From positions 32,001 to 96,000 of IMG/VR virus record IMGVR_UViG_3300027850_000002: DNA of 64,000 bases; one strand, written 5' to 3'. Source of the DNA: a virus. Position 1 is the first letter of the stretch; each line of letters starts with the position of its first letter. This document shows positions 5,144-48,888 of this stretch, one piece after another. The notes under the pieces are model-generated. The model was given only the letters and a program-made list of their open reading frames with translations. It did no database searches and was not told the DNA's origin. Made by a program: the position numbers and the translations under genes.

Positions 5144-8100
5144 ATGGCTGACCAACAGTCGAACGACACCATTCGCCAGATGATGTCGGGGTTCTCGGCG
5201 ATGCAATTCAATCTTGGATTGCTGCCGATGCCGCAAGCCCAAGCGATGGGTGGTGCAGGTTCGCAGTTCCAAGCTCCGCCGCCTCCGCCGCCGATCATGA
5301 GCCCTGGCGACTACGGGCAACAGGCGATGCAGCGACACGACGCGATGGTGCAACAGTCGCTGCAAGCTGCTCAGGTCACGCGATACCAGCCACCCCCATC
5401 GGCACCGACGCCCTCGGTCAGCGCGATGGTTGGAATGGGCGCGATGAATCCGTTCATGGCGCCGCCTGTCGGCGGTGGCTTCTCGAGTCCTGGTGGTGGC
5501 GGCGGAGGCGGTGGCTTCGGTGGTGGCGGCGGATTTGCCGGCGGTGGCACGTTTGCTAGTGGTGGATTCGCGGGTGGCGGACCGCCGCGTATGCCGTCGG
5601 TGTTCAATCCATTTGCACCAACGCACCCGACGTCTCACTTCGCGTCACCTGCGATGCGCAACCTGCAGATCATGCAGCACGCTCAGTCGTCGACGATGGG
5701 TACGATGGCTGGCGTCACCGAGGGTGTGATGGGTGTTGGCGGCGCTGTCGCCGGTGGCCTTCTCGGGTCCGCCTTCGGCCCAATGGGTACCGCTGCAGGT
5801 GCGTGGCTTGGCGGGAAGATTGGCGGCGCTGTTTCCGGGATGATGACGGGCCCCGTCACACAGGACTTCGCACGCGGTCGCCAGATTCAACAGATGACAT
5901 CACCGTTCATGGTGTCTGGACATTCAATGAATACGATGACTGGCCAAGGTATGGATGCGCATTCTGCGCGCCAGACTGCGACAGGCATTCGCAATCTTCA
6001 GCGCGATCATGACTTCGAGCGGACTGGGTTCAACACCCAGGACACCATGAAGATCATGCAGCAGTCCGGACAGCAAGGACTGCTGTCCGGTGCCCAGTCA
6101 CCCGATCAACTTGTTCAGAAGGTGAAAGACATCTCAAAGACCATCAAGGTCTTGATGAAAATCACCGGCGATCCGGATGTGCAGAGCGCCATCCAATCAC
6201 TTGGGCAAATGCGTGACATGGGTTTCCAGGGGCTCGCGGCGCAAGGCGGCGCTGTCGCGAACCGCACCGCGTTCGCGCGTATGGCCGGCGTCTCCCAAGG
6301 CCAGATGCATCAATACGGTCAGATGGGCGCGGGCATGGCGCAGGGCATGGGGCTCGCTGGCGCAACAGGTTATGGCGCGGGCATGGTCGGCGCCGCTTCT
6401 GCGAACATCGCGGTTTCCACCAGCGCACTCAACGATCTACAGCTCTCACGTGCGGGCGGCAAGGAGGGTGTCGCCCAGATCATGACGAAGGCCCAACTCG
6501 ACGCAATGGACAACAGCCCTTATCTTGCGGCGTCGTTGACGCGCGACAAGAACGGCGCGATGACGGTCGATCCGAACCTTTATCGCAAAGCTCATGGTCT
6601 TTCGTTCCAAGAAGTCTCGCAGATGGCTGCGACGAAACTTCGGGAGATTGGTGTTTCGGGCAACCTCGAGTTCGCGAACCGGATCGCAGAATTCAAGGAT
6701 CAGATTTCACAGAAGCTCGACCCGCTCGAGAAGCAGACGATGGCGTTTCGTCAGGCACAGGTCCTGGCGCAGAAGATCGGAAACGGTGCTGACCTCGCCG
6801 CGGGATTCCGTGAGATGGGTATGTCCGAGACCGAAGCCCGCACCATAGGCAAGATAGGCGAGAGTCGGAAGTTTTGGGACGGTGAAATCGAACAGCTCAA
6901 AGTCCAACGGATCACGGCGTCCGAGCAAGACTCGGCGAAGCGGGAGCAGTACCGCACACCGGGCGTGATGCTCCGAATGGATCGTGGTGTTCGCGGCTTT
7001 TTCAATGACGCCAGCGACACCGTGTCTTCTCCGTTCCGTTTGCTCTCCGAACACATGGATCGCACGAACGAGAACGAAGAGGCGGCAGGTCGCGGACTGC
7101 GTATCAATCGCTACAGCGAGCTGCAGGTCGTCAAGGACGACTCAGACCGCATGATGATGCGCGCCGCGTATCGTGACCGAGATTTCCAGCGCACCCTGAA
7201 ACAGGCGGGCTCCAACTTCATGGACGAGCAGGATGGATCACTCGGCGGTGCGTTCAAGCGGTCCGCAGGCCGGCAGTTGAACCGTATGGGTAGTTTTTTG
7301 GGTTTGTCTTCTCTCAGCAACGAGAACCGCATCACAGACATCGCGAGCCGGATCGACGGTTCGTACACCGGCTTGCATCCGTTCTCGACGTTCGGTGATC
7401 CGCAGGAAGCGATGAAACGCGTGCAAGGAGTTGTCGGCGCAGCACGCGCGTTCACAGACGCAGAATCGTTCTCTGCGGCCAAATCTGTCGCAGCCACAGC
7501 CGAGGTTGAAGCTCACATCCGCGGCATGGACGGAGACAAGATGAAGGGCGTGTCAGGCGCACAGATCATGGAGGCCGCGTCCAACAACTTCATTCGTACG
7601 TTGAAGGGCTACAAAGCCGGGACTATCAAGGGCGCGACTGCTGCATCAGAGAATGACATCCGTGAGGCTGTCATCAAGGCGGGCACCGACAACAAGATGT
7701 CGCGTGCTGAAGCCGAAGCAATGTACGAGAAGAGCAAGCACAAGTTCGGCGCCTTCATGGCGAAGGACGTCTTGGCGAGCGGCGACGAGAAGTTGATCGA
7801 GGTCGGCGCCAAGGCTCAAGAGCTTGCTTCAGAGGCAGGTACAGTCAGCCAGCTGCGTAGCCGTGAAGCGATCAGCGACGACATCAAGCTCACCGACGAG
7901 ATGCTCGGCCTCGATGACGAGAGCAGCGAGACGATGCTTGAGATCAAGGCGGTCCTCAAGCGCGGTGACGACGACGTCGTTGGATTGGCTGGCGCCCTGA
8001 ACGCGTCCAACTCCAAGGACGAGCGGACGCAGGAGTTAGGACAGCAGCTTCTCAAGAGCTATGAAGCGAAGCTCGGCGGTGACTACTCCAAGAAGAGAGC

Positions 8101-10363: not shown

Positions 10364-13300
10364 CCGCGCCCATCAGCAAGACATCCTTTGCAGCGAGTCA
10401 GCCAAGACAGGCTGCGTTCATCGTTTACATCAACGGCATCGAAGTCCCCGCGAAGTCCGTGAACCTGCGGTTCGGCGTCTGGCAGATGCCCGAGATGCAA
10501 ATCGAGATGACCGCGGACCCGGTGCTAATGCGCTTGGGCGCAGAAGACCGTGTTCAGGTTGTGGTGTTCTACCTCGATGACTGCGACGTCGTGCCCGGAG
10601 TTAAACCTGAGTTTCGTCTGTTTGGCGAAGGCGAAATCACTGGATGGGGCTACCGCAACACGGGCGCTAGCCGCTCGATCATGTTCACGGTCGTCAATCA
10701 GATTGCGATCTACACGCAGTTGACGGTCAGTTTTCTGAACACGTTCGAGGACCTCGTTGGCGATGCGCGCGACCCCGCGCGAGGTGTAATAAATCTTTCA
10801 ACACCATCGTCGCGTCTGGTCTACCCGCTCGCGCTGTTTACGCAAGGGCTTCTCGAGACAGGTGATGCGAAGGCTGATTTCATCAAACGGCCCTTCGACT
10901 TCCTCTACAACACTGTTCGCGGAATGATCGACGCGCGCATTCCAGAAGCGCATCAGGCCATCCCCGCCTCGAACTTCTTCGCACGTTGGTCGAGGCTGAC
11001 GAACTTCCACAATCGGTTCGTAGCGTCCCCGTTCTTCGATGAGGTCGCGGCAGGCAGTGACAACATCTTCCCGGTCTTGAAGGCGGTGCAGAGCGTCTCG
11101 GCTGTTAGCGCAATCGTCAAAAACCTCATCCCGAACGTTCAGAACTCGGGGTCCATCTGGGACATGCTCGAGGTGGTCATCCAGACCCTCTTGACCGAGA
11201 TCGCGATGATTCCGTCGATGCCGCTGGTTACGGTCGACCTTGCGACGAGTCTCATCCTTCCGACCAACTTCAACGAACACATCCTCGTTCAGGCGCCTGG
11301 GTACACGGATGAGCTGCTTACCGTGATCGGTGGTCAGGTTCGTACGTTCGGCGGCACACCGATCACAGGACTCGTCAACGGGCACGCTATTGACGTCGAT
11401 CCATTCACAGGTGCGGCCACCGACGGGGTAACGGGCGCGCCCATCGAGTACAGCGATACGCTCGAGAGCGCTTCAGCGAAGGCGAACGCTCGGAAGTGGG
11501 TTCCCGCGCTCAGCATCGACAGCCGTAAAACGGCCCCCAAGCGGATCCCAAACTACTTTGTGAAGCCGCAGAGCCTGTTCAGCATCCCACCGTCCTGTAA
11601 TGCGATCTTCCCGTCGCAGCTCCTCGACATGAGCTACCAGGAGAACTACGCGACGCAGCCGACGCGTCTGTACTTCAACGACGGCACCATCAATCGGCTC
11701 CTGCACCAGGTGGGCCCTTATGCGAATGCCGTCATGGATGCGCTCGCGATCGGGTATCCGCCTGAAGTAGACCTGCTTGAACGTCAGCGCCCAGCATCTG
11801 CCACCTACAACGCGAAGAATTTTCTCATCTTCCCCGAGGAGTTCTTCAAAGGTCCCGTAATGGACCGTCGCGACATCCCCCCGTGGATGTTCTTTCTCAG
11901 CGCACAGGAAAACCACATCAATCCAAAGCCCGCGGACGGAAGCGCGCCTGCGTCCCCGCCGCCCGCACGCACGAGCGCGACGCCGCCTCCACAACCGTTC
12001 ACACCCGCACCGCCTCTGCCGACCGTGGCCACCGGAAACACCAATCCGACGTTACCGCTTCAAGGTCGTTGGGTTTGGCCCGTCTCGATGTACAACGGCC
12101 GAAAGCCCATCGTTAGCCAAGGTTTCAATCGGAATCCAGGAAGCGAACGCGGCGTCATACATCCGGGACAAGACTTCTTCTTCGAACGAATTCGGTCAGA
12201 CCCATACCCTGACCGCACGCCCAATCGGTCCAAGAACTTCGTCATGCCCAATGGCGTGTCGGTCCTTGCTGCGGCTGACGGAGTCATCTGGTCAGCAGGT
12301 AAGACGGGGGTCGGTTATAGTATTGTTATCAGTCACGAACCGCTCAAGGTCGCAACGTATTATACACACATGACATCCATGTTTGTGGAACCTACACAAC
12401 GTGCGAACTCAGGTCAACGCGTCAAGGCAGGCACGCCCCTCGGCATCATCGGATACAGTCCGACGGATGAAGCCAAGCTGATGCACCTGCATTTTGAGCT
12501 GTGGTTCGGTGGTGCAACAGACTTCGTCGATCCCGCGCGTTTCCAGAAGAACTGGGAATACATGACGGCGGGGCAACCGCTGCCCGCAGCAGCGCCGCCG
12601 CCCGCTACGCCGCAGTCGTCAACGTCTGTTCAGCCCCCACCCGCGGCACCCACGTCTCCTGCGCCTTCACCGGCTGCCTATGACACAGCTCAAGAGGCAA
12701 GCGATACAGTCTACAAGCTTTACGCTAAGTTCGAGTACTTCCGTGAACGTTACGCCAAGCGGAACGGCTCAGCCTCTGTTGCGTGGAATCCATACGTTGT
12801 TGCAGGCTTTCCCGGCGTCATTCTTGATCAACGCGCGTCGCGCGTTGACCTGTTCTGTTACATCACAACAGTGCAGCAGACTATGTCTCACGACGGGCGT
12901 CGTGGAACGCAACTTTCATTTTCGTACGGACGCCAACTCCAGGAGATGTTCCAGCAACTGAGTGACGAGTTCTCGTTGAACGACGCGACTGCACGAGGAT
13001 CGGCCCCCCAGGAGCCCATTCGTGATGTCAGCAAGGTGCTTCAGTCGTTCCCACAGGCTGAAACGTACTATCAAAACCTGTTCTACGGTGCGCAGCCTCT
13101 TTACGGTAAGGACGCGTCTTTCGATTTCCGAAACATGCTTGCGTACGCACCTAAGGTACCAGGCGCCTCTCCGGAACAAATCTATGTCGACGGACCCGAT
13201 GCGGTAGTCGACGATGCGGTTGTTCAAGCGACCCAGGTCTACGCGAATTTATTGGCTGAACGGACACCGCTCAGTGAAAAGGTCGTGTTGCTTCAAAGCC

Positions 13301-13965
13301 AGATCCAGATTCAACTGGATATTATCTTTGTCAACACGTTATCGTTTGGATCAACTCAAACAAGCGATAGTTCGCCGCTCGATGCAAACAACAATCCAAA
13401 CGCTTTGGTCTCCATCATTAAGGAGCAGCAAACAGCGACAGCCGACACAACCCTCGCTGACCTGAATCCACAACTCAAACGCGCACAAGCAGACCTTGCT
13501 GCTCTTGATACACGCATCAACAGTACGTTGTTGGTCAAAAACCAGACGTCGGTGAACTCCGTAACACGTGTATCGCACAACCTCGGTGGTGCGAACGCGA
13601 ACCGAGAGCTGGTTCCTACACCACGCTCAGCGCAGTTCTTCAACAGCCGAGATGCGGCGATGCGTTACAACTGGCGCCCGATCTGCACACTTGATGAGTA
13701 CGTCGTTTTCCTCAATTCTGCGGGGGAAGGAGCCGTGCCTTCGTTTGGCCATGCACACAGTGTTGGTGCTCGATATTTCCAACGTATTCGACGTATCGAA
13801 TACCAGCCGTTGCCTTTGGATCCCCCGCCGGGCGTTACGGGCCTGGACTCACCTGCCGTCACGGGTTTGACGTCGACAAGCTTCTCCCAAACACGTAGCG
13901 ACTGGGATACGGCACTGCTCGCCTATCGCAACAACGTCCTGGCCATCAAGACGCCGAGAACCTAG
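10360..13965 (+). CDS. Putative baseplate hub protein with inserted M23 peptidase domain
   Basis: HPGQD (HxxxD), VLAAADGVI, YYTHM, HLHFEL flanked by Pro-rich linkers; position in the tail operon. Confidence 0.75.
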   Translation: MTAPISKTSFAASQPRQAAFIVYINGIEVPAKSVNLRFGVWQMPEMQIEMTADPVLMRLGAEDRVQVVVFYLDDCDVVPGVKPEFRLFGEGEITGWGYRNTGASRSIMFTVVNQIAIYTQLTVSFLNTFEDLVGDARDPARGVINLSTPSSRLVYPLALFTQGLLETGDAKADFIKRPFDFLYNTVRGMIDARIPEAHQAIPASNFFARWSRLTNFHNRFVASPFFDEVAAGSDNIFPVLKAVQSVSAVSAIVKNLIPNVQNSGSIWDMLEVVIQTLLTEIAMIPSMPLVTVDLATSLILPTNFNEHILVQAPGYTDELLTVIGGQVRTFGGTPITGLVNGHAIDVDPFTGAATDGVTGAPIEYSDTLESASAKANARKWVPALSIDSRKTAPKRIPNYFVKPQSLFSIPPSCNAIFPSQLLDMSYQENYATQPTRLYFNDGTINRLLHQVGPYANAVMDALAIGYPPEVDLLERQRPASATYNAKNFLIFPEEFFKGPVMDRRDIPPWMFFLSAQENHINPKPADGSAPASPPPARTSATPPPQPFTPAPPLPTVATGNTNPTLPLQGRWVWPVSMYNGRKPIVSQGFNRNPGSERGVIHPGQDFFFERIRSDPYPDRTPNRSKNFVMPNGVSVLAAADGVIWSAGKTGVGYSIVISHEPLKVATYYTHMTSMFVEPTQRANSGQRVKAGTPLGIIGYSPTDEAKLMHLHFELWFGGATDFVDPARFQKNWEYMTAGQPLPAAAPPPATPQSSTSVQPPPAAPTSPAPSPAAYDTAQEASDTVYKLYAKFEYFRERYAKRNGSASVAWNPYVVAGFPGVILDQRASRVDLFCYITTVQQTMSHDGRRGTQLSFSYGRQLQEMFQQLSDEFSLNDATARGSAPQEPIRDVSKVLQSFPQAETYYQNLFYGAQPLYGKDASFDFRNMLAYAPKVPGASPEQIYVDGPDAVVDDAVVQATQVYANLLAERTPLSEKVVLLQSQIQIQLDIIFVNTLSFGSTQTSDSSPLDANNNPNALVSIIKEQQTATADTTLADLNPQLKRAQADLAALDTRINSTLLVKNQTSVNSVTRVSHNLGGANANRELVPTPRSAQFFNSRDAAMRYNWRPICTLDEYVVFLNSAGEGAVPSFGHAHSVGARYFQRIRRIEYQPLPLDPPPGVTGLDSPAVTGLTSTSFSQTRSDWDTALLAYRNNVLAIKTPRT

Positions 13966-25658: not shown

Positions 25659-26225
25659 TCACAACATGTTGCAAGCAGAACGAAACGAAACGACATCGTC
25701 CAACCAACGAACGAAGTCGGCGTAAGACATTACGCCTTTGGCCCGGTTACACAACGCACAACTCGGGACCGTGTTCGCGTTCGTATACCCGGTTGTATTA
25801 TCGATTCGATCGATACCGTTGCACTTGATATGTTCCTTACGGGTGTTCCGCAACGGAGCCCTGCCGCAGTAGTGGCATTTATTCATTAGAAGACGGGCTG
25901 CGTCTTCCCAAGACAACTCCCAGACATGATTCCTACGTCGCGCATTCGTCATGTAGACGCCGATCACATGGTTAAGAGCAGGAACCACAGGGTCGGCGTA
26001 TCGAAAAGATGTCGGCGGAGTTCTGAGTCCGTTTTGTCGAGACTTCGAACGCCGTAAACAACCACAACTCTTAGTTCGACCACTTTTCAAATGGTGCGCA
26101 GCCACGCGCGTGGTGTTTCCGCATTCACAGCGACATACCCACATGCAGCTACGTCCGTTTGGATTGGTCTTTTCTACAACCGTTAGTTTTGTGTAAATCT
26201 GTCCGGTCAGGTCAATGAAACGCAT
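25659..26225 (-). CDS. Free-standing HNH homing endonuclease
   Basis: DLTGQ...WVCRCECG...SCGC N-terminal domain; CHYCG...GIDRIDN..GY...N.VPSC..CN..K. Confidence 0.88.
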   Translation of the reverse strand: MRFIDLTGQIYTKLTVVEKTNPNGRSCMWVCRCECGNTTRVAAHHLKSGRTKSCGCLRRSKSRQNGLRTPPTSFRYADPVVPALNHVIGVYMTNARRRNHVWELSWEDAARLLMNKCHYCGRAPLRNTRKEHIKCNGIDRIDNTTGYTNANTVPSCALCNRAKGVMSYADFVRWLDDVVSFRSACNML

Positions 26226-26228
26226 ACC

Positions 26229-28481
26229 TTATGCAATGCTGCATGCGCCGCCTGCACATGCGGCCTCGCCCGTCAGGTTCGTGCCGTCTTCGGCCTCGAA
26301 CACCGAGAGGTAGTCGATTGGCGTGTAGCTGGCGACCAACTCGTTCCAGCGTCGTTCTTGTGCCTCCGTTTTGACCGCCTCAAACGGAGCAAAGGCATAA
26401 AGCATGTCCCCGGAGTCCGGAAGTAGTGACACGCCTGTGAAGTCGTTACGGTGCGTCCACAGGTAGTCGGCAACCGACGCCCACTCGTCTGGACGGACGG
26501 TGATGGTGTTTGAGACGTTGTGCGAGAGTCCAGGTACCTGACTTGGACGAGTCGCTCCGGGGACCACCCAGTTTTGCTGGGTTGATCGCACTGTGTCCAT
26601 GAACACCTCGGCCGAGAGGTCCTCTTTGAGGGCTGCACCCTCAGGGGCCTCGACCGGAAATTCAATGACCCACTTTCCGTCCGGTTTACGAACACACATT
26701 GCAGGGTTCACTGTTTGGAACGCTTGGAACACAGTCTCAAGAGCGTCAGCGGTGACGCGACGGATGTAGCGCCGTGCGTGGTGTGGATGGATGCCCGAGC
26801 CGACGTTGCCTAGCTCGAGAGACGTCGTGCCTGACGGCTTCACGCACGTCGTGCGCGCTGCCTGATTGATACCAAGGAGAGCGGCGTACTCACGGTTCCA
26901 TTCGACAACCTGTGCGGCAACCTTGCGCTGGAACTCTGGGTCACACGCGATGTGAGGCGCATCCTGCATCCCCGTCATGCCGATGCCGAGCAGCGCATCA
27001 CGACGGACGATCGCTTCGGTGACCTTGCCCAGAAACGGCATATCGGTGTACGTCGCCTGCATCGTGCCGATGAGCGTTGCCGCCCAGGCAGCCTCGGAGA
27101 AGTCCTCGAATGAAGTGAGCTTCGCCGCGTTGATCTCGCAGAGGTTGCACATCGCCCAGCCGGTTGACGTCGAGCCGTCGTCATTGACGAGGAGCGGGTC
27201 GAGGCCGATTTCGGCGCAGGGGTTGGTGACGTGGTTGTAGTCGCTGACGAACAGGACGCCTGGCTCGCCGAAGTTCCGCGTCATCCCGAAGATGCGTTTG
27301 AACTGCTTCTCCTTGACCTCGTCACGTTTGAGCACGACGGAGTTGTTGGCGTTGGCCAGCCATGGTTCCTTGGCGTACCAATCACGGTCCGTCTTGATGT
27401 GCATCAATTCGCTGTCCTCGATCGAGAACAAACAGATCATCGCACTGCGACGAATGCCGCCCGAGAGCACAGCATCTGCCGCGTGGCACAGGATGCGATG
27501 GCATTCGACGGGACGGAGCTGCCGGCCTTGCGCGCTGTGGAGGATCTTGCGGATCTGTTCGAGGGCGAGCTTGAGCTTGCGATGTCCGGGTGCTCGGCCG
27601 CCGCTGGTCTTGAGCGGCGTGCCTGCCGCACGGATTTGGTTGTACGCGAATTCGACGTGGTAGCCGCCGATGTAGCCGTTGATCAACGCATCGAGTGCGT
27701 TGGCCCAGCCTTCGATAGTGTCGTCGATGAGGTGGTGGACGACCTTCTTCTCGTCGACGTCGGCAAGTGCAGGCAACTTCTCGACGTGCTCGATCTGCAC
27801 GGAGTACCCAACACCGCAGCCTGATAAGAGCAGGAACATCGCTTCAGCGAAAACGCGAGGGCGGTCAACGAGCGATGCGGAGCAGTTGTAGATGCGGTTG
27901 TGGTTGGCTTCGATAGCTGTTCCGCCAAATTGCATCGAACGCATCGACGGAAGAACTTCTTTGCGACGGACTGCTTCGTGCGCTCGTTTGATGAGCGGCA
28001 GCAGTTCGGGTATGTGAGCGAAGCGCCGCAGGTGCATGCCTTCTTCGCGGTCGACTGTCTCGTCGTAAACTTCGCGGCGCAGCAGATCGGGGACGTACCG
28101 TGCGTACTTGCTCGCGTGGATGTAGTCGGCGACCGCGGTAGCGTCAGGCTTGCGTTGGGCTGCGCGCGCCTCGGTCCGCTTCTGACGGTAGATGATGTAC
28201 GCCTTGGCAACCTTGAATTGCTTGGCGCGCATGAGCGCAACTTCGACGGCATCCTGAATCTGCTCGACGTTGGCGATGTCCGCACGCAGCGTTGCTGCAA
28301 CGAACGTTGCGACGCGCTGGAGTCCTTCCTCGTCGACAGCGCCTTCAGCCTCCAACCACGCTTTCCGCACCGCGCTCACAATCTTTCCCACGTCGAAGGG
28401 CTGAACCGTTTGTCCATCGCGCTTGCGCACGGTTCCTGGTTGAATGACGGGAAGGGTGAACGTTGTGTCAGCAGATTGCAC
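26229..28481 (-). CDS. nrdJ: Class II (adenosylcobalamin-dependent) ribonucleotide reductase with N-terminal ATP cone
   Basis: VRKRDG..FD..KI ATP cone; PSMR, YNCS, TNPCAEI, CNL, TCVKPSGT, C-terminal CAGGAC; no small subunit in window. Confidence 0.88.
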   Translation of the reverse strand: MQSADTTFTLPVIQPGTVRKRDGQTVQPFDVGKIVSAVRKAWLEAEGAVDEEGLQRVATFVAATLRADIANVEQIQDAVEVALMRAKQFKVAKAYIIYRQKRTEARAAQRKPDATAVADYIHASKYARYVPDLLRREVYDETVDREEGMHLRRFAHIPELLPLIKRAHEAVRRKEVLPSMRSMQFGGTAIEANHNRIYNCSASLVDRPRVFAEAMFLLLSGCGVGYSVQIEHVEKLPALADVDEKKVVHHLIDDTIEGWANALDALINGYIGGYHVEFAYNQIRAAGTPLKTSGGRAPGHRKLKLALEQIRKILHSAQGRQLRPVECHRILCHAADAVLSGGIRRSAMICLFSIEDSELMHIKTDRDWYAKEPWLANANNSVVLKRDEVKEKQFKRIFGMTRNFGEPGVLFVSDYNHVTNPCAEIGLDPLLVNDDGSTSTGWAMCNLCEINAAKLTSFEDFSEAAWAATLIGTMQATYTDMPFLGKVTEAIVRRDALLGIGMTGMQDAPHIACDPEFQRKVAAQVVEWNREYAALLGINQAARTTCVKPSGTTSLELGNVGSGIHPHHARRYIRRVTADALETVFQAFQTVNPAMCVRKPDGKWVIEFPVEAPEGAALKEDLSAEVFMDTVRSTQQNWVVPGATRPSQVPGLSHNVSNTITVRPDEWASVADYLWTHRNDFTGVSLLPDSGDMLYAFAPFEAVKTEAQERRWNELVASYTPIDYLSVFEAEDGTNLTGEAACAGGACSIA

Positions 28482-29511: not shown

Positions 29512-30492
29512 ATGGCTCTCTTTGAACAAGAGCGGCACGTCGAACTGGTCGAGAGCGCTGATCAGCTCTTCTTCGTTACGAGCCGGATAGTGTCTGCGGT
29601 TATCCCGGACCAACTCCCGCACCTGAACGTTTTTGTTCTCTCGGTTTCCAACGTCCTCGACCCGACCCAAGACGTGCTCGCTCGCGTTGCCAACCTGGCA
29701 GACCTTACGCTGATCCCAATTGGACGGGACCCTGGGATCGCTGCTCCCGGGATCAACGGCATCGAGTACCTGGCCGATACATCAACGAGTACGTACACCA
29801 CCCTCGAGACCGCCAACGATGCGGCCGTGGCCTTCCAGGACCGCGTCAACGCGCTCATCCAAGCGTGGATTACGTTCCGAACCGAGTTCAACGCGCCTGA
29901 GCCGACACCCGCGCTCTACACGTTCCCCACTGTCGATCCGTCTCAGTTGAACGCGTTGATTGCAGCGTACGCCGCAGCCAAGCAATTCGGCTACGCCCAG
30001 CTACAAACGAAACTCGCTGCTGACAACACGCTGCTCCTTGCACAAGCGGATTTCACATACAAACAAAGCCTGGTCCAAGGTGCGACGACCACGGTTTCTG
30101 ACACGACCAATGTCAGCAACAAGTTCATATCTACGGTCACGCAGTACGGCTCGCTTCTCACCGCGGCCAACACGTTCTACTCGTTGAACACGGGTGGCGC
30201 TGGTGCCGCGGCAATGGCCGCTGCCATCTCGACGGCGAATGCTCAACAGACGGCCATGCCGGGCTACCTGGCGGACGCGTTGGCTGCGATCACCAATGCC
30301 ACCAGCTATCTGACCAATCGTCAAAACGACATGAATGCGGCAGGCACGGTTCAAGCAACCGCGCAGTCCAACGCCATCACACAGACGCAACTTCTCACGG
30401 CTGCGAACGCGACAACGACTGCGGCTCTTGCGGCAGTCATCGCCATCTGTCCAGATTTCGACGCGACGACCATCGCGCTCGTCCCGGGCTGA
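29512..30492 (+). CDS. Hypothetical Ala/Thr/Gln-rich coiled-coil-like protein, possibly virion fibre
   Basis: 326 aa; long low-charge helical C-terminal half. Confidence 0.65.
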   Translation: MALFEQERHVELVESADQLFFVTSRIVSAVIPDQLPHLNVFVLSVSNVLDPTQDVLARVANLADLTLIPIGRDPGIAAPGINGIEYLADTSTSTYTTLETANDAAVAFQDRVNALIQAWITFRTEFNAPEPTPALYTFPTVDPSQLNALIAAYAAAKQFGYAQLQTKLAADNTLLLAQADFTYKQSLVQGATTTVSDTTNVSNKFISTVTQYGSLLTAANTFYSLNTGGAGAAAMAAAISTANAQQTAMPGYLADALAAITNATSYLTNRQNDMNAAGTVQATAQSNAITQTQLLTAANATTTAALAAVIAICPDFDATTIALVPG

Positions 30493-30494
30493 TC

Positions 30495-30571
30495 AAAAAA
30501 AACCGGCGCCCGCAAGAGTAACGCGGGTGGAACGTTGCTCTACACGGTGGGAACCGTGGCGTGCGCCGGCC
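30495..30571 (-). terminator. Intrinsic terminator-like GC stem plus U8 at a convergent junction
   Basis: GGCCGGCGC...GCGCCGG followed by eight U. Confidence 0.6.
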
Positions 30572-30665
30572 AAAAGAGGGCTGGTGAAACAGGACAAGTG
30601 TCGGGCAGAAACGACACCCTATATCACCACGTTCATGTGTCTGCCAACCACACAAACGTTTGCCC
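30495..30665 (-). ncRNA. Candidate structured non-coding RNA (kissing-loop junction plus pseudoknot domain) ending in U8
   Basis: Multiple nested stems found by hand; 6-bp loop-loop complementarity GGCAGA/UCUGCC; G-U pairs favour the - strand. Confidence 0.6.
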
Positions 30666-30672
30666 AAAACGC

Positions 30673-30849
30673 TTACTTCATCACACGAATCTGCCACACC
30701 AGCTGCTTCACTAGAAGCGCAATTCCTGACGTCAGCGCTGCGTCTGCATCTTCGAGGATCTGAGACAGCTCTTCTTCGGTGAATCGCCGGTCAACCCTCT
30801 GCAGTTCGCGCGCAAGCTTCTTCAGGCGTGTCGCGGCGCATGCACTCAC
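30673..30849 (-). CDS. Small hypothetical protein
   Basis: GTG overlapping the upstream TGA, with GGAG RBS; 58 aa. Confidence 0.55.
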   Translation of the reverse strand: MSACAATRLKKLARELQRVDRRFTEEELSQILEDADAALTSGIALLVKQLVWQIRVMK

Positions 30850-31997
30850 GCTGCGATTTTCTCCTTGGGCGGGGCGAGCAACAACTGGCCGGCGATCTCC
30901 TCCAGCTCGAGTCGACGCTCTGCCGTCGGAGCGCTCTTGGCGAACCACGACACCGCGTTCGAGAGACGCGCTTGTGTGGTTCCACGCGGTAGCACCTCGA
31001 CGTCTCCGTCCATGAAGACCTCCTTGATCTTGTCGACCTCGCCCTTGAGCAAGCCCATCTTGGGCAGCTCCTGCCACGCCTGCTTCGGGTCGATGCGCGT
31101 CTCGAGTGCTTCACCGATGCAGCCCACGAGCGCGTTCACCTTGTCGGGTGCGAGCACCTGCTGGACCATGTCCTGAATGGCCGAGACCTGTGTCTTGGTG
31201 TCGAGCAGGTAGGTCTCCTTGCTGAACTCCATGTCGTCCGACAGACGTTTGCCGAGGTGAACTTGGCGCATGACCTGCTCGAGGGTCGCCGTGTTGGTGC
31301 ACACGAGACGCGTGCAGAACGCGTTGAGCCCGAGCACACCCTTGCCGAAGTCGGAATTCGACAACTGCAACCCGAACGCAAGGACCTCCTCCATGCCACG
31401 CTTGGCCGCCGGCTGAAACACCATCGGCAAGATGGCCTTCACCGCCCAGCGCAGGTCACCGCCAATGCCCTCGACAGGCACCGCACCGATCTTTCCACAC
31501 GCCTTCGCGAACGCTTCGATGATGGGTCCCGAGTCCATGCGCTTGAACGAGTTCGACAGCACGCCGCGGACCTGGTCATTGACCGACCGGACGAGGAACT
31601 TCTTGTTCTCCTCCTCCTTGAAGATGCGTGACAGGTTCTCGACGATCAGCTCGCGGCCGTAGGGCCTCTCGAGCAGACGGTTGACGTAGGTACCAGGGAC
31701 GCCGGCGCGCTCGCAGACTTGGTCGAGCGCGTTCTTGTGCAACCCCTCCTCGAAGTAGTTCTTGGCCTTCTTGTTGCGCAAGCCCATCACGATGGTCTTG
31801 GTGTCATTGCCGTCGACCATGAACTGCAGCGACGTCGAGTCGGCAACCCGGTCAACCGGCGTCTCGCGCTGGACCTTCTCGATGACGGACATCGCAGATG
31901 CCTGCGTCTTGTGGATCATCTCCTCGAGCTTGACCTTGAAGCCTGCGGTGGCCTCACCGAGAGCTACGTCGTAATCCTTTTCGCTGTGGTGGATCAT
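30846..31997 (-). CDS. DUF932-like protein
   Basis: VRGVLSNSFK, LSNSDFG...RLVCTN motifs; start placed at MIHHSEKD. Confidence 0.75.
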   Translation of the reverse strand: MIHHSEKDYDVALGEATAGFKVKLEEMIHKTQASAMSVIEKVQRETPVDRVADSTSLQFMVDGNDTKTIVMGLRNKKAKNYFEEGLHKNALDQVCERAGVPGTYVNRLLERPYGRELIVENLSRIFKEEENKKFLVRSVNDQVRGVLSNSFKRMDSGPIIEAFAKACGKIGAVPVEGIGGDLRWAVKAILPMVFQPAAKRGMEEVLAFGLQLSNSDFGKGVLGLNAFCTRLVCTNTATLEQVMRQVHLGKRLSDDMEFSKETYLLDTKTQVSAIQDMVQQVLAPDKVNALVGCIGEALETRIDPKQAWQELPKMGLLKGEVDKIKEVFMDGDVEVLPRGTTQARLSNAVSWFAKSAPTAERRLELEEIAGQLLLAPPKEKIAA

Positions 31998-32155
31998 TTT
32001 CTTCTCTTTTTCTTCTTCTTGGTGAATTCGATAACGCACCATAGGCACGTCACGATTTGATGTGATTTACGGGTCTTGCCGATGCGTGGATGTTCTGGGG
32101 ACCGATACATGGAGATTCCGCAGTGAATGATCCCTCTGTCATCCATCCAGTTCAT
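31994..32155 (-). CDS. 53-aa putative zinc-binding basic protein (not in ORF track)
   Basis: MNWMDDRGIIHCG...IVTCLWCVIEFTKKKKKRRK; fills the gap, ATGA overlap with the next gene. Confidence 0.6.
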   Translation of the reverse strand: MNWMDDRGIIHCGISMYRSPEHPRIGKTRKSHQIVTCLWCVIEFTKKKKKRRK

Positions 32156-32158
32156 GTC

Positions 32159-33592
32159 TCAGCTCTTATAGCGCTCGTTGTGTTCCGGGTCGCAGACGAT
32201 GATCTCGCCGTACCCCTCGTGGAAATGCTCGCTGTGTTGAGGTGTCACGAGCCACAACACCGGAATTTCGTGAGGTAGATGGTTCTGAGGGTCGACGGCA
32301 GGCGCATAACCGTCCGTGTAGACCACGACGATGTCGGGCATCTTATCGTCGTCCTTGGTGTACTGTTTCATGTGGATGAAGTACGCGTCGAAATCCGTAC
32401 CACCACGACCCACCATGTTCTTGGGAATCTCATCGCCAGAATGCAGCAAGACGTCCATATGTGTCGCAGCATCGCCCTGCATGTAACGAATCTCCATGTT
32501 GTCATCAACCGCGAGCATGTGCTGTAACTCGCTCTTGACGATTTCAAGTGACTCCGTAGACATTGAGCCAGACGTATCGACATAGAGAAACACGCGCCAC
32601 GCTTTGTCCCGTACGCGGCCAGGCGTTGGGATGATGCAGACGTCTTCCTCCGCCAAGGCCAGCAGCATGCGGTTGGGTTGCGCAACGCTCCGGCGATACT
32701 TCGACGTACGCGACATCCGTGCTCGCGTCGCAAAGATTTCCCACCACGGAACAATCGGCTCAGCCAGGTAGGCCTCGAGCCACTCCTGCATACCGCTCGG
32801 CAACGTCCCGCGCCCGACGCCGCCCATGGAACGAACGACCGAACGCATTGTTTGCTTGAGTTGCTCGCGGATGCGGTGTGCTTGAGAAAGCAGCTCGTCG
32901 GACGTCAGGTCCTTGAATGTGGAACCGCCGAACCCTTGCCCTTTCCCGTCACCGGGTTCCTCACCCGGTTTGCCGTCGCCGCTACCTGCGCCCTGGTCCT
33001 GCCCGTCGTTTTCGTCTTCGCCCTTGATCCACATCGAGTGGTCGGTGCCCCCGAGCAAACTCTCGATGTCGATGACCTTGACCTTGCGCATCAAGGACCA
33101 CTGGTAGAACTCGAACGATCCTTCGAGCGGTAGATCGAACTTCTCCGGCAGACACATCCCGTTGCGCGGATTGTCGGGGGCCTCCGGGTTCTTCTCCTTG
33201 ATCATCTTGATCACGAGAGCTTCGGTTTCGTCGAACCCTTCATGTTTTCGCAGCATCGTGTTGATGGCGCAGTCCATGCTGACGTTGGCCACTGCACCTG
33301 CTTTGGTACGCTCCAGCTCACTACGACAAAGCGCCAGCAGTTCGAGGTAGCGCGGGATGTGGTCGAGCATCAGATGCAACATCTCGTGCTCGAGGACGAA
33401 CAACGCCGACTTCAAGGTCAGGGCGGCGATGAACTCCGGGTCGTAGAACAACACCGCACGACCCTCGCGGATACCCACAGCAATGGTGCCCATCCCCGGA
33501 CGTGCAACGCGTTCCAGGCTCGAAGCCAGACGTCCGTAGAAACTTTTCTTCTGGATTAGATAGATGAAGAATTCTGAAAGTTTCAGTTTCAT
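32159..33592 (-). CDS. DUF2201-like metallopeptidase / VWA-domain protein
   Basis: HEMLH (HExxH), D.AIN, DTSGSM MIDAS, GRGGTDF, YTDG. Confidence 0.88.
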   Translation of the reverse strand: MKLKLSEFFIYLIQKKSFYGRLASSLERVARPGMGTIAVGIREGRAVLFYDPEFIAALTLKSALFVLEHEMLHLMLDHIPRYLELLALCRSELERTKAGAVANVSMDCAINTMLRKHEGFDETEALVIKMIKEKNPEAPDNPRNGMCLPEKFDLPLEGSFEFYQWSLMRKVKVIDIESLLGGTDHSMWIKGEDENDGQDQGAGSGDGKPGEEPGDGKGQGFGGSTFKDLTSDELLSQAHRIREQLKQTMRSVVRSMGGVGRGTLPSGMQEWLEAYLAEPIVPWWEIFATRARMSRTSKYRRSVAQPNRMLLALAEEDVCIIPTPGRVRDKAWRVFLYVDTSGSMSTESLEIVKSELQHMLAVDDNMEIRYMQGDAATHMDVLLHSGDEIPKNMVGRGGTDFDAYFIHMKQYTKDDDKMPDIVVVYTDGYAPAVDPQNHLPHEIPVLWLVTPQHSEHFHEGYGEIIVCDPEHNERYKS

Positions 33593-33608
33593 GTTATCCA
33601 CTGAGTTG

Positions 33609-34079
33609 ATGGGCGGCGGTGGTAATCCCGAACGCAACCGTGCACGGGAGTGGTATCTCGTAAATCGAGAACGAGGCATTGCTCGTTCCAAGCAATGGGT
33701 TCTAGATAACAAAGAGACGCGCAAAGAGAATATGCGCGCATGGCGAGAAGCAAATAGATCGCGCCTACGGCAGTATTTACGAAATTGGTTTCTCGTACAT
33801 CCTGAGAAAAACCGAGAATACAGCCTTCGATATAGTTACCGCGCGTGTACAGCCCCGGGGTTCGCAACCGCCGAACAAATTGAAGCGAGGGTCGCCTTCT
33901 TTGGAGGGGTCTGCGCGTATTGCGGTGGTACGTACGATCATCTTGAGCACGCGATTTCATTGTCGCGTGGTGGGACGAACTGGCCCGCGAATCTCCATCC
34001 AGCCTGCCAACGTTGCAACCTGGCGAAGGGTGGCCGCACCATCTTTGAATTTCTTGATTGTTCACCTAAACGCCTATAA
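33609..34079 (+). CDS. HNH endonuclease
   Basis: CAYCG...EHAISLSRGGTNWPANLHPACQRCNLAK; start uncertain (33564 or 33609). Confidence 0.85.
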   Translation: MGGGGNPERNRAREWYLVNRERGIARSKQWVLDNKETRKENMRAWREANRSRLRQYLRNWFLVHPEKNREYSLRYSYRACTAPGFATAEQIEARVAFFGGVCAYCGGTYDHLEHAISLSRGGTNWPANLHPACQRCNLAKGGRTIFEFLDCSPKRL

Positions 34080-47665: not shown

Positions 47666-47682
47666 CGCACTCCTCGTTGGTG

Positions 47683-47836
47683 AAAAAGAAAAGTGCCGTC
47701 TTTCCGGCTGTCAGTTGTCTCTCCAACCGTCACGACTATTCCGGGCGCCGACCAATTGGCTTGTTCCGTACCGGGCGCTACCCGGCATCAACTATCCCGA
47801 GGCTCAATCGTTTCCTTGGTCTCGTCGACCTTCTCA
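47683..47836 (-). ncRNA. Candidate structured RNA / terminator with tandem GA(A/G)AGA-loop hairpins
   Basis: GGUUG-GAGAGA-CAACU and GCCG-GAAAGA-CGGC hairpins, upstream multibranch stems, U-rich tail. Confidence 0.5.
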
Positions 47837-47838
47837 GG

Positions 47839-48888
47839 TCACATGGGCTTCGACGAAGAACGTGCCGCACCGCCCTTGGTGGGCTTGGCGCCTGCGGGCG
47901 TCGTTGCATCAACGGGGCTCAGGTCCGGCTCGATGCCGTTGTTGGCGAGGCCCGCTTCGAGCGCACCTGCCGCGAACTGGCCCTCGGCCTCGGCTGCAGC
48001 CCGCGGGGCACGTGCCGGACGTGCGTAACAGTCCGCGAGGAACAGCTTGCGCCCCGCGACGTACATGCCGTAGAGCGCCTCGGCAAGACGCATCACATGT
48101 TCCGGGTTGTCCTTGCCCGTGGGCTCGACCTTGTAGACGAAGTACAGGCCGAGATCGCCCGTCTTCTTCTCGGTGTTGAGGAGGTAACTCTGGCGCCACA
48201 CGGCGGTCTGCTGCCCTGCGAGCGAGAGTAGCGCCGAGCCCGCCTTGCGTGACGTCTTGCCGAACTGCAGCATGTAGACCTGCGGGTTCACGAGATCCGT
48301 CGACATCACGATCGCGACGATGTTGTTCTGGCAGTCCGTCTTGTGTTGTTCACCGCGGCCGGCGTTCTGCTTGCCGAACGGCAGGTGGGGGCACTTCAGA
48401 CACTCACCAAACGGCGAACCAAGCTTGGCATCAGGCGCCTGGCACACCGGGTTCTTTCCCTGCTGCGGGAAGTTGATGTTCTCTTCGAAGAAGTAGAGCG
48501 GGATGACGGGCGTTGGCCGTTCGAGGAGCTGACCCGACGAGGTGTAGAGATCGCCGTTCTTGGCGGCCTCCGGCTTGGTCTCGGACTGTGACGTCGGCTG
48601 CACGATGCTCACGCGGGGAACTCGCCACGCAGCGACCATCTCTTCCATGCCGGGCTTGTTCGGTGAGGCGAGAGCGGCGAGAGTCTTCACGGCCTGACGC
48701 GCCACGTCGGGCATCGTCGTGTCGTCGGCAAGGTTTGCCAGTTCCTCGCGCTTACGGATGACTGTTGCTTCGAGAACGGCGGGGTCGAGGGCGGCAGCCG
48801 CAGCGCCCATGGAAGACTTGACGACCAGGGCCTTGGCGGGGACGACGGATGCGTTGGAGTCATTGGAACCGTTGGGGGAATCAGTCAT
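47839..48888 (-). CDS. Hypothetical replication protein, possibly ssDNA-binding
   Basis: 349 aa heading the replication operon; four Cys, flexible C-terminal tail; function inferred from context only. Confidence 0.5.
   Translation of the reverse strand: MTDSPNGSNDSNASVVPAKALVVKSSMGAAAAALDPAVLEATVIRKREELANLADDTTMPDVARQAVKTLAALASPNKPGMEEMVAAWRVPRVSIVQPTSQSETKPEAAKNGDLYTSSGQLLERPTPVIPLYFFEENINFPQQGKNPVCQAPDAKLGSPFGECLKCPHLPFGKQNAGRGEQHKTDCQNNIVAIVMSTDLVNPQVYMLQFGKTSRKAGSALLSLAGQQTAVWRQSYLLNTEKKTGDLGLYFVYKVEPTGKDNPEHVMRLAEALYGMYVAGRKLFLADCYARPARAPRAAAEAEGQFAAGALEAGLANNGIEPDLSPVDATTPAGAKPTKGGAARSSSKPM

Follow-up and report, generated by a model that had tools for sequence, protein, structure and literature searches.

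Two independently folding RNA modules stand in tandem at the end of an operon in a virus genome, and we consider it probable that the region works as a stack of intrinsic-terminator or 3′-end elements. Each module has kept its fold through compensatory base changes, each occurs without the other in related phages, and both lie in the 3′ tail of the operon. The earlier note on this DNA had drawn a single RNA of two domains; both folds proved genuine and on the - strand, but the domains do not make up one RNA, being separable modules that are also found singly. Modules I and II are structured RNAs that are absent from Rfam and from the literature searched.

Genomic Context of the Element

The window, which is the whole 64,000-nt stretch of DNA that was analysed, corresponds to 32001-96000 in an IMG/VR virus record of 175,415 bp, whose completeness is rated at 94%. 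The structured stretch is the 178-nt tail past the last - strand ORF and lies between two convergent genes, as laid out here in window coordinates:

32159-33724, - strand: DUF2201 metallopeptidase/VWA gene, the first-named gene of the operon, 5′ of the 400-aa gene
30846..32048, - strand: 400-aa gene, phrog_1362, no Pfam family, function unassigned, penultimate in the operon
30673..30849, - strand: 58-aa ORF, the last gene before the structured tail
30578..30665, - strand: module I, a three-way junction (MFE, covariance model, pair changes)
30572..30577, - strand: U-rich linker UCUUUU, 3′ of module I
30501..30571, - strand: module II, a Y-shaped fold (covariance model, pair changes)
30495..30502, - strand: U8 run, directly 3′ of the module II closing stem
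29512..30492, + strand: convergent 326-aa gene, function unassigned, with its TGA stop at 30490-30492

The element is the 3′ untranslated tail of the DUF2201/400-aa/58-aa operon on the - strand. The 58-aa ORF starts at a GTG that overlaps the TGA of the 400-aa gene, module I begins 7 nt past the stop codon of the upstream ORF, in the middle of the genome, and the U8 run at the far end is separated by 2 nt from the TGA stop of the 326-aa gene. The 400-aa protein has 524 homologues at E ≤ 1e-50, which are metagenomic and mostly on contigs up to ~190 kb. The 58-aa protein has exact copies on three other contigs and a 65-aa homologue, P0002, at 86% identity.

Runs of T7 or longer number only nine in the 175-kb genome, the U8 at 30495..30502 being one of them. 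As a separate observation on the genome as a whole, a canonical hairpin-plus-U terminator is present at few operon ends and, given the nine T7+ runs, most transcription units must therefore end otherwise. Elsewhere in the window, an HNH endonuclease-like ORF at 25659-26225 (- strand; several PHROG HNH families) immediately follows a ribonucleotide reductase that has an ATP-cone, at 26229-28481 (- strand), a placement beside the reductase that is typical of a homing endonuclease.

Folding and Strand of the 178-nt Tail

On the - strand the 178 nt fold with an energy of -76.2 kcal/mol into an MFE structure that equals the centroid (z -4.3), and the element does fold better than shuffled controls, as 0 of 200 shuffles reached that energy. 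Genomic background was taken from the first 97 kb, where 2420 windows of 180 nt were folded and energy was regressed on GC; against it the - strand had z -3.07, with 0.17% of windows lower, and the + strand z -2.0. Folded alone, module I (30572-30668) gave z -4.4 with the MFE equal to the centroid, and module II (30495-30573) gave z -3.7. All the nested helices that had been drawn from the letters were found in the - strand MFE, position for position. Likewise, the G-U pairs described as workable on the - strand only were recovered, six of them in the window, with many others in the homologues, and from these pairs the strand is therefore the sense strand of the operon. Since module II alone has a slightly better energy on the + strand than on the - strand, its strand was called from the comparative G-U pairs and the U-run, not from energy.

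The same background picked out two other stretches of the window, 5921-6200 and 13281-13500 (- strand), which are the top-folded of the first 97 kb relative to GC (z -3.75 and -3.5) and fold more strongly than the element made of modules I and II. The second RNA of the earlier note, at window positions 47675-47845 (- strand), is intergenic, ends in a UUUUCUUUUU tract and was just slightly more stable than its shuffles (z -1.68, with 15 of 200 shuffles folding as well).

Module I Has a Co-varying Loop-Loop Helix

In module I the closing stem P1 is formed by 30662-30665 with 30578-30581, the strands at the junction are 2, 0 and 1 nt long, and there are two arms:

30629..30659, - strand: hairpin A, 11 bp with a 9-nt loop at 30640-30648
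30583..30628, - strand: hairpin B, 5 bp, a 1x1 internal loop, 5 bp, a bulge and 6 bp

Hairpin B has its 4-nt bulge on the 3′ side at 30594-30597 and an 8-nt loop at 30604-30611. The GGGC/GCCC stem and the two hairpins, which had been proposed beforehand, are features of the MFE, together with these loops and this bulge. So is the sequence basis of the proposed kissing interaction present, in that loop A at 30640-30645 (GGCAGA) pairs with loop B at 30604-30609 (UCUGCC) in a perfect 6-nt Watson-Crick match; the duplex energy is -8.9 kcal/mol, and the chance of a 6-nt match is 0.2-0.3% for loops of this size.

A module I homologue was found on L058, a 54-kb Logan contig encoding a 400-aa protein 89% identical to that of the window. 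There it starts directly 3′ of the stop codon of the 400-aa gene, makes up the whole 106-nt spacer and is the sole structure before UCU7 and the convergent stop. The module I covariance model (R1) matched it at L058:2360-2457 over all 97 positions with 68.7 bits and an E of ~6e-16, model E-values being rough, and this range folded alone gave an MFE with the same three-way junction. Hairpin A has 11 bp in each of the two sequences. The lower part of hairpin B has 5+1+5 or 12 bp, and the bulge, the 6-bp top and the 8-nt loop are the same.

The module I comparison covers two distinct sequences, those of the window and L058, aligned by covariance model and so leaning toward structure. When the loop-loop pairs were included, 98.6% of cells were paired and 13/37 pairs were changed on both sides; slid controls gave 1-3 two-sided changes and 1/500 shuffles reached the observed value. 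The hairpin A helix (helix 2) was 100% paired with 5 double changes, and helices 4 and 5 of hairpin B were 100% paired with 7 double changes, the position of the bulge being kept in L058. The loop-loop pairs co-vary as well: 6/6 are paired in both sequences with one G-C to A-U replacement, so that the complementarity is kept in L058 despite a two-sided change, and the native combinations (-8.9 and -6.8 kcal/mol) are stronger than the mixed ones (-6.2 and -3.3 kcal/mol). Outside the pairs conservation is higher, with 71% of unpaired columns identical vs 48% of paired ones. The bulge of hairpin B stands 11 layers above the junction, which is the height of loop A, and these matching heights fit a defined three-dimensional arrangement.

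A third locus is indicated by P0002. The C-terminus of this 65-aa protein, FGKPPHG*, matches LGRPPHG*, which the 5′ half of module I yields when translated in L058, and the gap to the convergent gene is 75 nt after the P0002 ORF vs 77 nt in L058. This ending and this gap together therefore imply another module I locus without module II, in which the ORF would probably extend as far as loop A. Gap lengths are also available for P0009 (ENA ERZ28573514), at 74 nt, and for P0012 (Logan SRR22198351 and SRR23617219), at a gene-free 216 nt that could hold another tandem; P0002 is on Logan SRR20217205 and SRR20217196.

Module II Is a Y-Shaped Fold With an Invariant Loop

The closing stem of module II is formed by 30563-30571 with 30501-30509 plus 3 more bp, and it encloses two hairpins:

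30543-30558, - strand: hairpin P2, with the loop UCCC
30515-30541, - strand: hairpin P3, with the invariant 7-nt loop UCCACCC at 30525-30531

The long closing stem, the UCCC-capped hairpin of 6 bp and the U8 were all in the MFE, in agreement with what had been read for this domain. Module II was found alone at two other loci. In L014 it begins 6 nt past the 400-aa stop codon, with UCU9 on its 3′ side, and its own MFE has the same Y shape (z -5.3). In L055 the first inner hairpin is reduced and the second is kept with its UCCACCC loop. With the covariance model of the window module, L014 scored 51.7 bits and L055 23 bits.

Across the three distinct sequences compared (window, L014 and L055), again in model-built alignments, 76/76 cells were paired and 12/27 pairs were changed on both sides. 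None of 500 shuffles reached any of these measures, and slid controls were 32-52% paired with 1-3 two-sided changes. The UCCACCC loop and its two closing pairs are invariant in the three lineages, and the stem below them has turned over. MAFFT alignments A1, A2, A4 and A8, in which stems were misaligned, were left out of the pair counts for either module. Despite the lean of the counted alignments toward structure, double changes lay far above the slid controls with no broken pairs, and each homologue folded on its own took the same fold as the window module.

The pseudoknot that had been suggested for this domain did not hold up. Its crossing helix, CCCGC/GCGGG, was 60% paired over the three sequences, no better than slid controls, with no covariation, and was rejected also because it competes with co-varying nested stems; what had been drawn as the other arm is a normal nested hairpin that carries three double changes. 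Reading the module II loop as a T-loop (tRNA-like) was likewise given up, since the consensus register breaks a co-varying stem. A target search with the complement of the loop gave no meaningful match anywhere in the phage genome.

The Intergenic Slot in Related Phages

The slot between the 400-aa gene and the convergent gene was gathered from ~25 related loci. It is highly variable: up to two small ORFs, or none, precede any of several terminal structures, and a run of U7-U9 beside the convergent stop is kept in every relative examined. A plain GC hairpin with U7 fills the slot in the distant loci L016-18, L059, L072 and L076/77 and in some close ones (L054, L056 and L007). A third element of ~120 nt is common to L002, L003, L012, L019 and L057 in the same slot. 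By BLAST, the sequence of the window element had no match in any of the plain-hairpin or third-element relatives. L052 and L053, two contigs of 79 kb that come from other samples, have identical copies of the window element. The 400-aa proteins beside module I in L058 and module II in L055 are 94% identical, and the modules therefore swap between close relatives.

Some details of the slot are recorded here in their own right. The third element (L002:2272-2396, L003:5632-5752, L012:4984-5101 on the - strand, L019:1069-1176 and L057:2653-2691) is unrelated to modules I and II and has a terminal hairpin before U8. In its small hairpin GCAA, UUCG and CACA-type loops alternate, with a C-G to U-A double change. 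Its overall fold is not significant (z +0.64) and double changes are confined to 2 pairs. The slot 3′ of the 400-aa gene is also a hot spot of small-gene turnover (window 30673-30849; L003, L007, L016-18, L059 and L060), and its content in close relatives ranges from nothing through a single ORF (58 aa, a 65-72-aa homologue or 140 aa) to 66+80-aa pairs. A weak covariance-model match in L078 (18.9 bits) was discarded, the architecture being absent.

Searches for Families and Further Copies

The claim that the RNA could be assigned to no family was borne out for both folds when they were compared with Rfam. No match at the gathering score was obtained across the whole window, and at E ≤ 10 positions 30300-30900 gave only noise below 17 bits. 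The pRNA model RF00044 appeared neither among cmscan matches at the gathering score nor among those at E ≤ 10, the element had no Rfam match to the purine riboswitch RF00167, other riboswitches or ribozymes, and no tRNA or tmRNA was found in the window. Neither BLAST nor the covariance models found a further copy in the phage's own genome, blastn vs INPHARED phages returned nothing, an exact 21-mer had 0 matches in IMG/VR, and tblastx of the gap revealed no hidden coding homology. A search for the two-loop pattern gave 23 matches in GTDB genomes and 1 in IMG/VR, all by chance and with the fold absent; a relaxed version permitting covariation had 0 matches in IMG/VR. The pattern of the module II loop had 6 matches in IMG/VR, all by chance.

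Probable Stacked Terminators and Alternative Readings

The terminator reading, which we consider the probable one, is held because the slot carries ordinary terminators in relatives, T7+ runs are rare in the genome and the G-U pairs fix the strand. Module II has the stem and U-tract of an intrinsic terminator, namely a 9-bp (plus 3) stem and then U8, and the element lies at the 3′ end of a transcription unit, in the tail of the last ORF and abutting the convergent stop. In module I the closing stem, of 4 bp, stacks on hairpin B, and the U-tract after it is UCUUUU in the window and UCU7 in L058; since module I is the only structure before the U-run in L058, it would itself have to be the terminator there. 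In the proposed mechanism both modules would stop RNA polymerase. Module II, with its 9-12-bp GC closing stem, two hairpins and U8, would be the main factor-independent terminator, and module I a second module of the same functional class with its arms tied by the 6-bp loop-loop helix. This helix would lock the arms of module I such that the short 3-4-bp closing stem can form beside the U-run, and the compact, knot-like 3′ end might also shield the message from 3′-to-5′ exonucleases. The linker UCUUUU has its counterparts in the UCU7 tail of L058 and, for L014 and L055, in the U-rich sequence just 5′ of module II. Because this U-rich junction resembles both the 3′ tail of the one module and the 5′ flank of the other, the tandem may have arisen by recombination between phages with different modules.

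The nearest functional class would thus be the intrinsic terminator, of which the element would be an unusual, tertiary-structured and modular variant. Like known members, it is located at an operon end between convergent genes and has a GC-rich stem directly followed by a U-run. Unlike them, it has branched three-way junctions, conserved loops and two unrelated modules stacked, and module I has in addition a 6-bp loop-loop helix that co-varies, a conserved bulge and a stem of just 3-4 bp at the U-run. That short closing stem, together with the short U-tract in the window, counts against the terminator reading, and so does the fact, against a reading of termination only, that termination needs no conserved loops, conserved bulge or loop-loop helix. 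In this respect the suggestion that there is more structure here than a terminator needs is supported, as the conserved part includes the co-varying loop-loop pairing. The conserved loops point to a possible job beyond termination: loops more conserved than stems suggest an additional sequence-specific partner, and the invariant C-rich loop of module II likewise points to a putative one. It is therefore conceivable, although we regard it as doubtful, that module I is a tertiary RNA device, a ring closed by the co-varying loop-loop helix, constant in arm lengths and bulge and swapped by large phages as a 3′-end cassette, whose job goes beyond stopping polymerase, as an exonuclease-proof cap, a protein dock or a self-assembling RNA. 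On the same tentative reading, with module II and the third module of the L002 type, the clade would keep a pool of interchangeable structured 3′-end RNAs. A compact, tertiary-closed junction at an RNA end is also seen in flaviviral xrRNAs and in the 3′ stabiliser stem-loops of bacterial and phage mRNAs, and by this analogy a role of module I as an exonuclease roadblock is plausible. The xrRNAs block the 5′-to-3′ nuclease Xrn1, and their fold differs from that of module I.

Conserved unpaired bases would also be expected if the modules were functional non-coding RNAs, either 3′ UTR-derived sRNAs or protein-binding decoys freed by processing, in which the built-in terminator merely makes the 3′ end and the working surface is the UCCC and UCCACCC loops or the exposed bases of module I. 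The higher conservation of unpaired than of paired columns and the invariance of the UCCACCC loop and its closing pairs in three lineages despite stem turnover favour this, and terminator loops of sRNAs can act in regulation, according to one report (PMC11979758). We nevertheless hold it to be rather unlikely, given that no target of the module II loop was found within the phage genome, that the modules of L058 and L014 start ≤10 nt from the upstream stop and so leave no promoter room outside coding sequence, and that many relatives are without either module. The self-associating RNA in the style of phi29 pRNA that had been proposed at the outset, with the loops of module I pairing between molecules into a ring or dimer, can draw on the same complementarity: module I is, like pRNA (RF00044), a phage RNA of ~100 nt in which a three-way junction is combined with two complementary loops that co-vary, a logic that PMC4201828 describes for pRNA, and computation reads intra- and intermolecular loop pairing alike. 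The two have no match in sequence or structure, module I matching neither the pRNA model nor any Rfam family even at E 10. Its setting as an mRNA tail in a 3′ UTR, 7 nt past a stop codon in the middle of a 175-kb genome, does not suit a separate pRNA gene at a genome end, and module I is dispensable among close relatives, most of which lack it and have other terminators instead, which therefore makes it not essential for packaging; we take this proposal to be highly improbable. The phi29 pRNA is a separate RNA gene near the genome end of a small phi29-like phage and is needed for packaging. It pairs its loops between molecules, whereas intramolecular pairing is plausible for module I.

A three-way junction with a loop-loop contact also resembles hammerhead and purine-riboswitch scaffolds, and a self-cleaving ribozyme or a ligand-sensing, riboswitch-like element could control read-through into the convergent operon. 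The purine riboswitch (RF00167) in particular has a P1-closed three-way junction with side-by-side hairpins joined by a loop-loop contact. Module I is unlike it in having no long conserved junction strands and hence no pocket, in being placed 3′ of genes, in its unequal arms (11 bp vs 16 bp plus a bulge) and in not matching the covariance model; compared with the hammerhead and other small ribozymes, its junction is too small for a core. With junction strands of only 2, 0 and 1 nt there is therefore neither a conserved catalytic core nor a ligand pocket, and the ribozyme that had been offered as one interpretation found no support, either in a core or in a match to Rfam; any such element is extremely improbable here. 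We give no more credence to the view that the stretch has no function at the RNA level and is a DNA cruciform, a recombination hot spot or a chance run of GC-rich hairpins. Both strands do fold well, and genes and modules alike turn over in this slot as in a hot spot, but the 25 two-sided pair changes over both modules, with essentially no disrupted pairs, and the numerous G-U pairs, which in DNA or on the opposite strand become A-C mismatches, already disfavour it.

Intrinsic terminators are usually viewed as simple hairpins with unimportant loops. Here, one terminator slot in closely related phages holds at least three unrelated folded modules, or else plain hairpins, and two of these modules have many compensatory changes and loops more conserved than their stems. 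If it is true that the loop-loop lock matters, be it to termination or to the survival of the RNA, module I would be a natural part of ~90 nt for the control of 3′ ends and would offer a clean system in which to study the effects of tertiary structure on termination. If the modules serve termination only, the slot would still document a rapid modular turnover of terminators by recombination.
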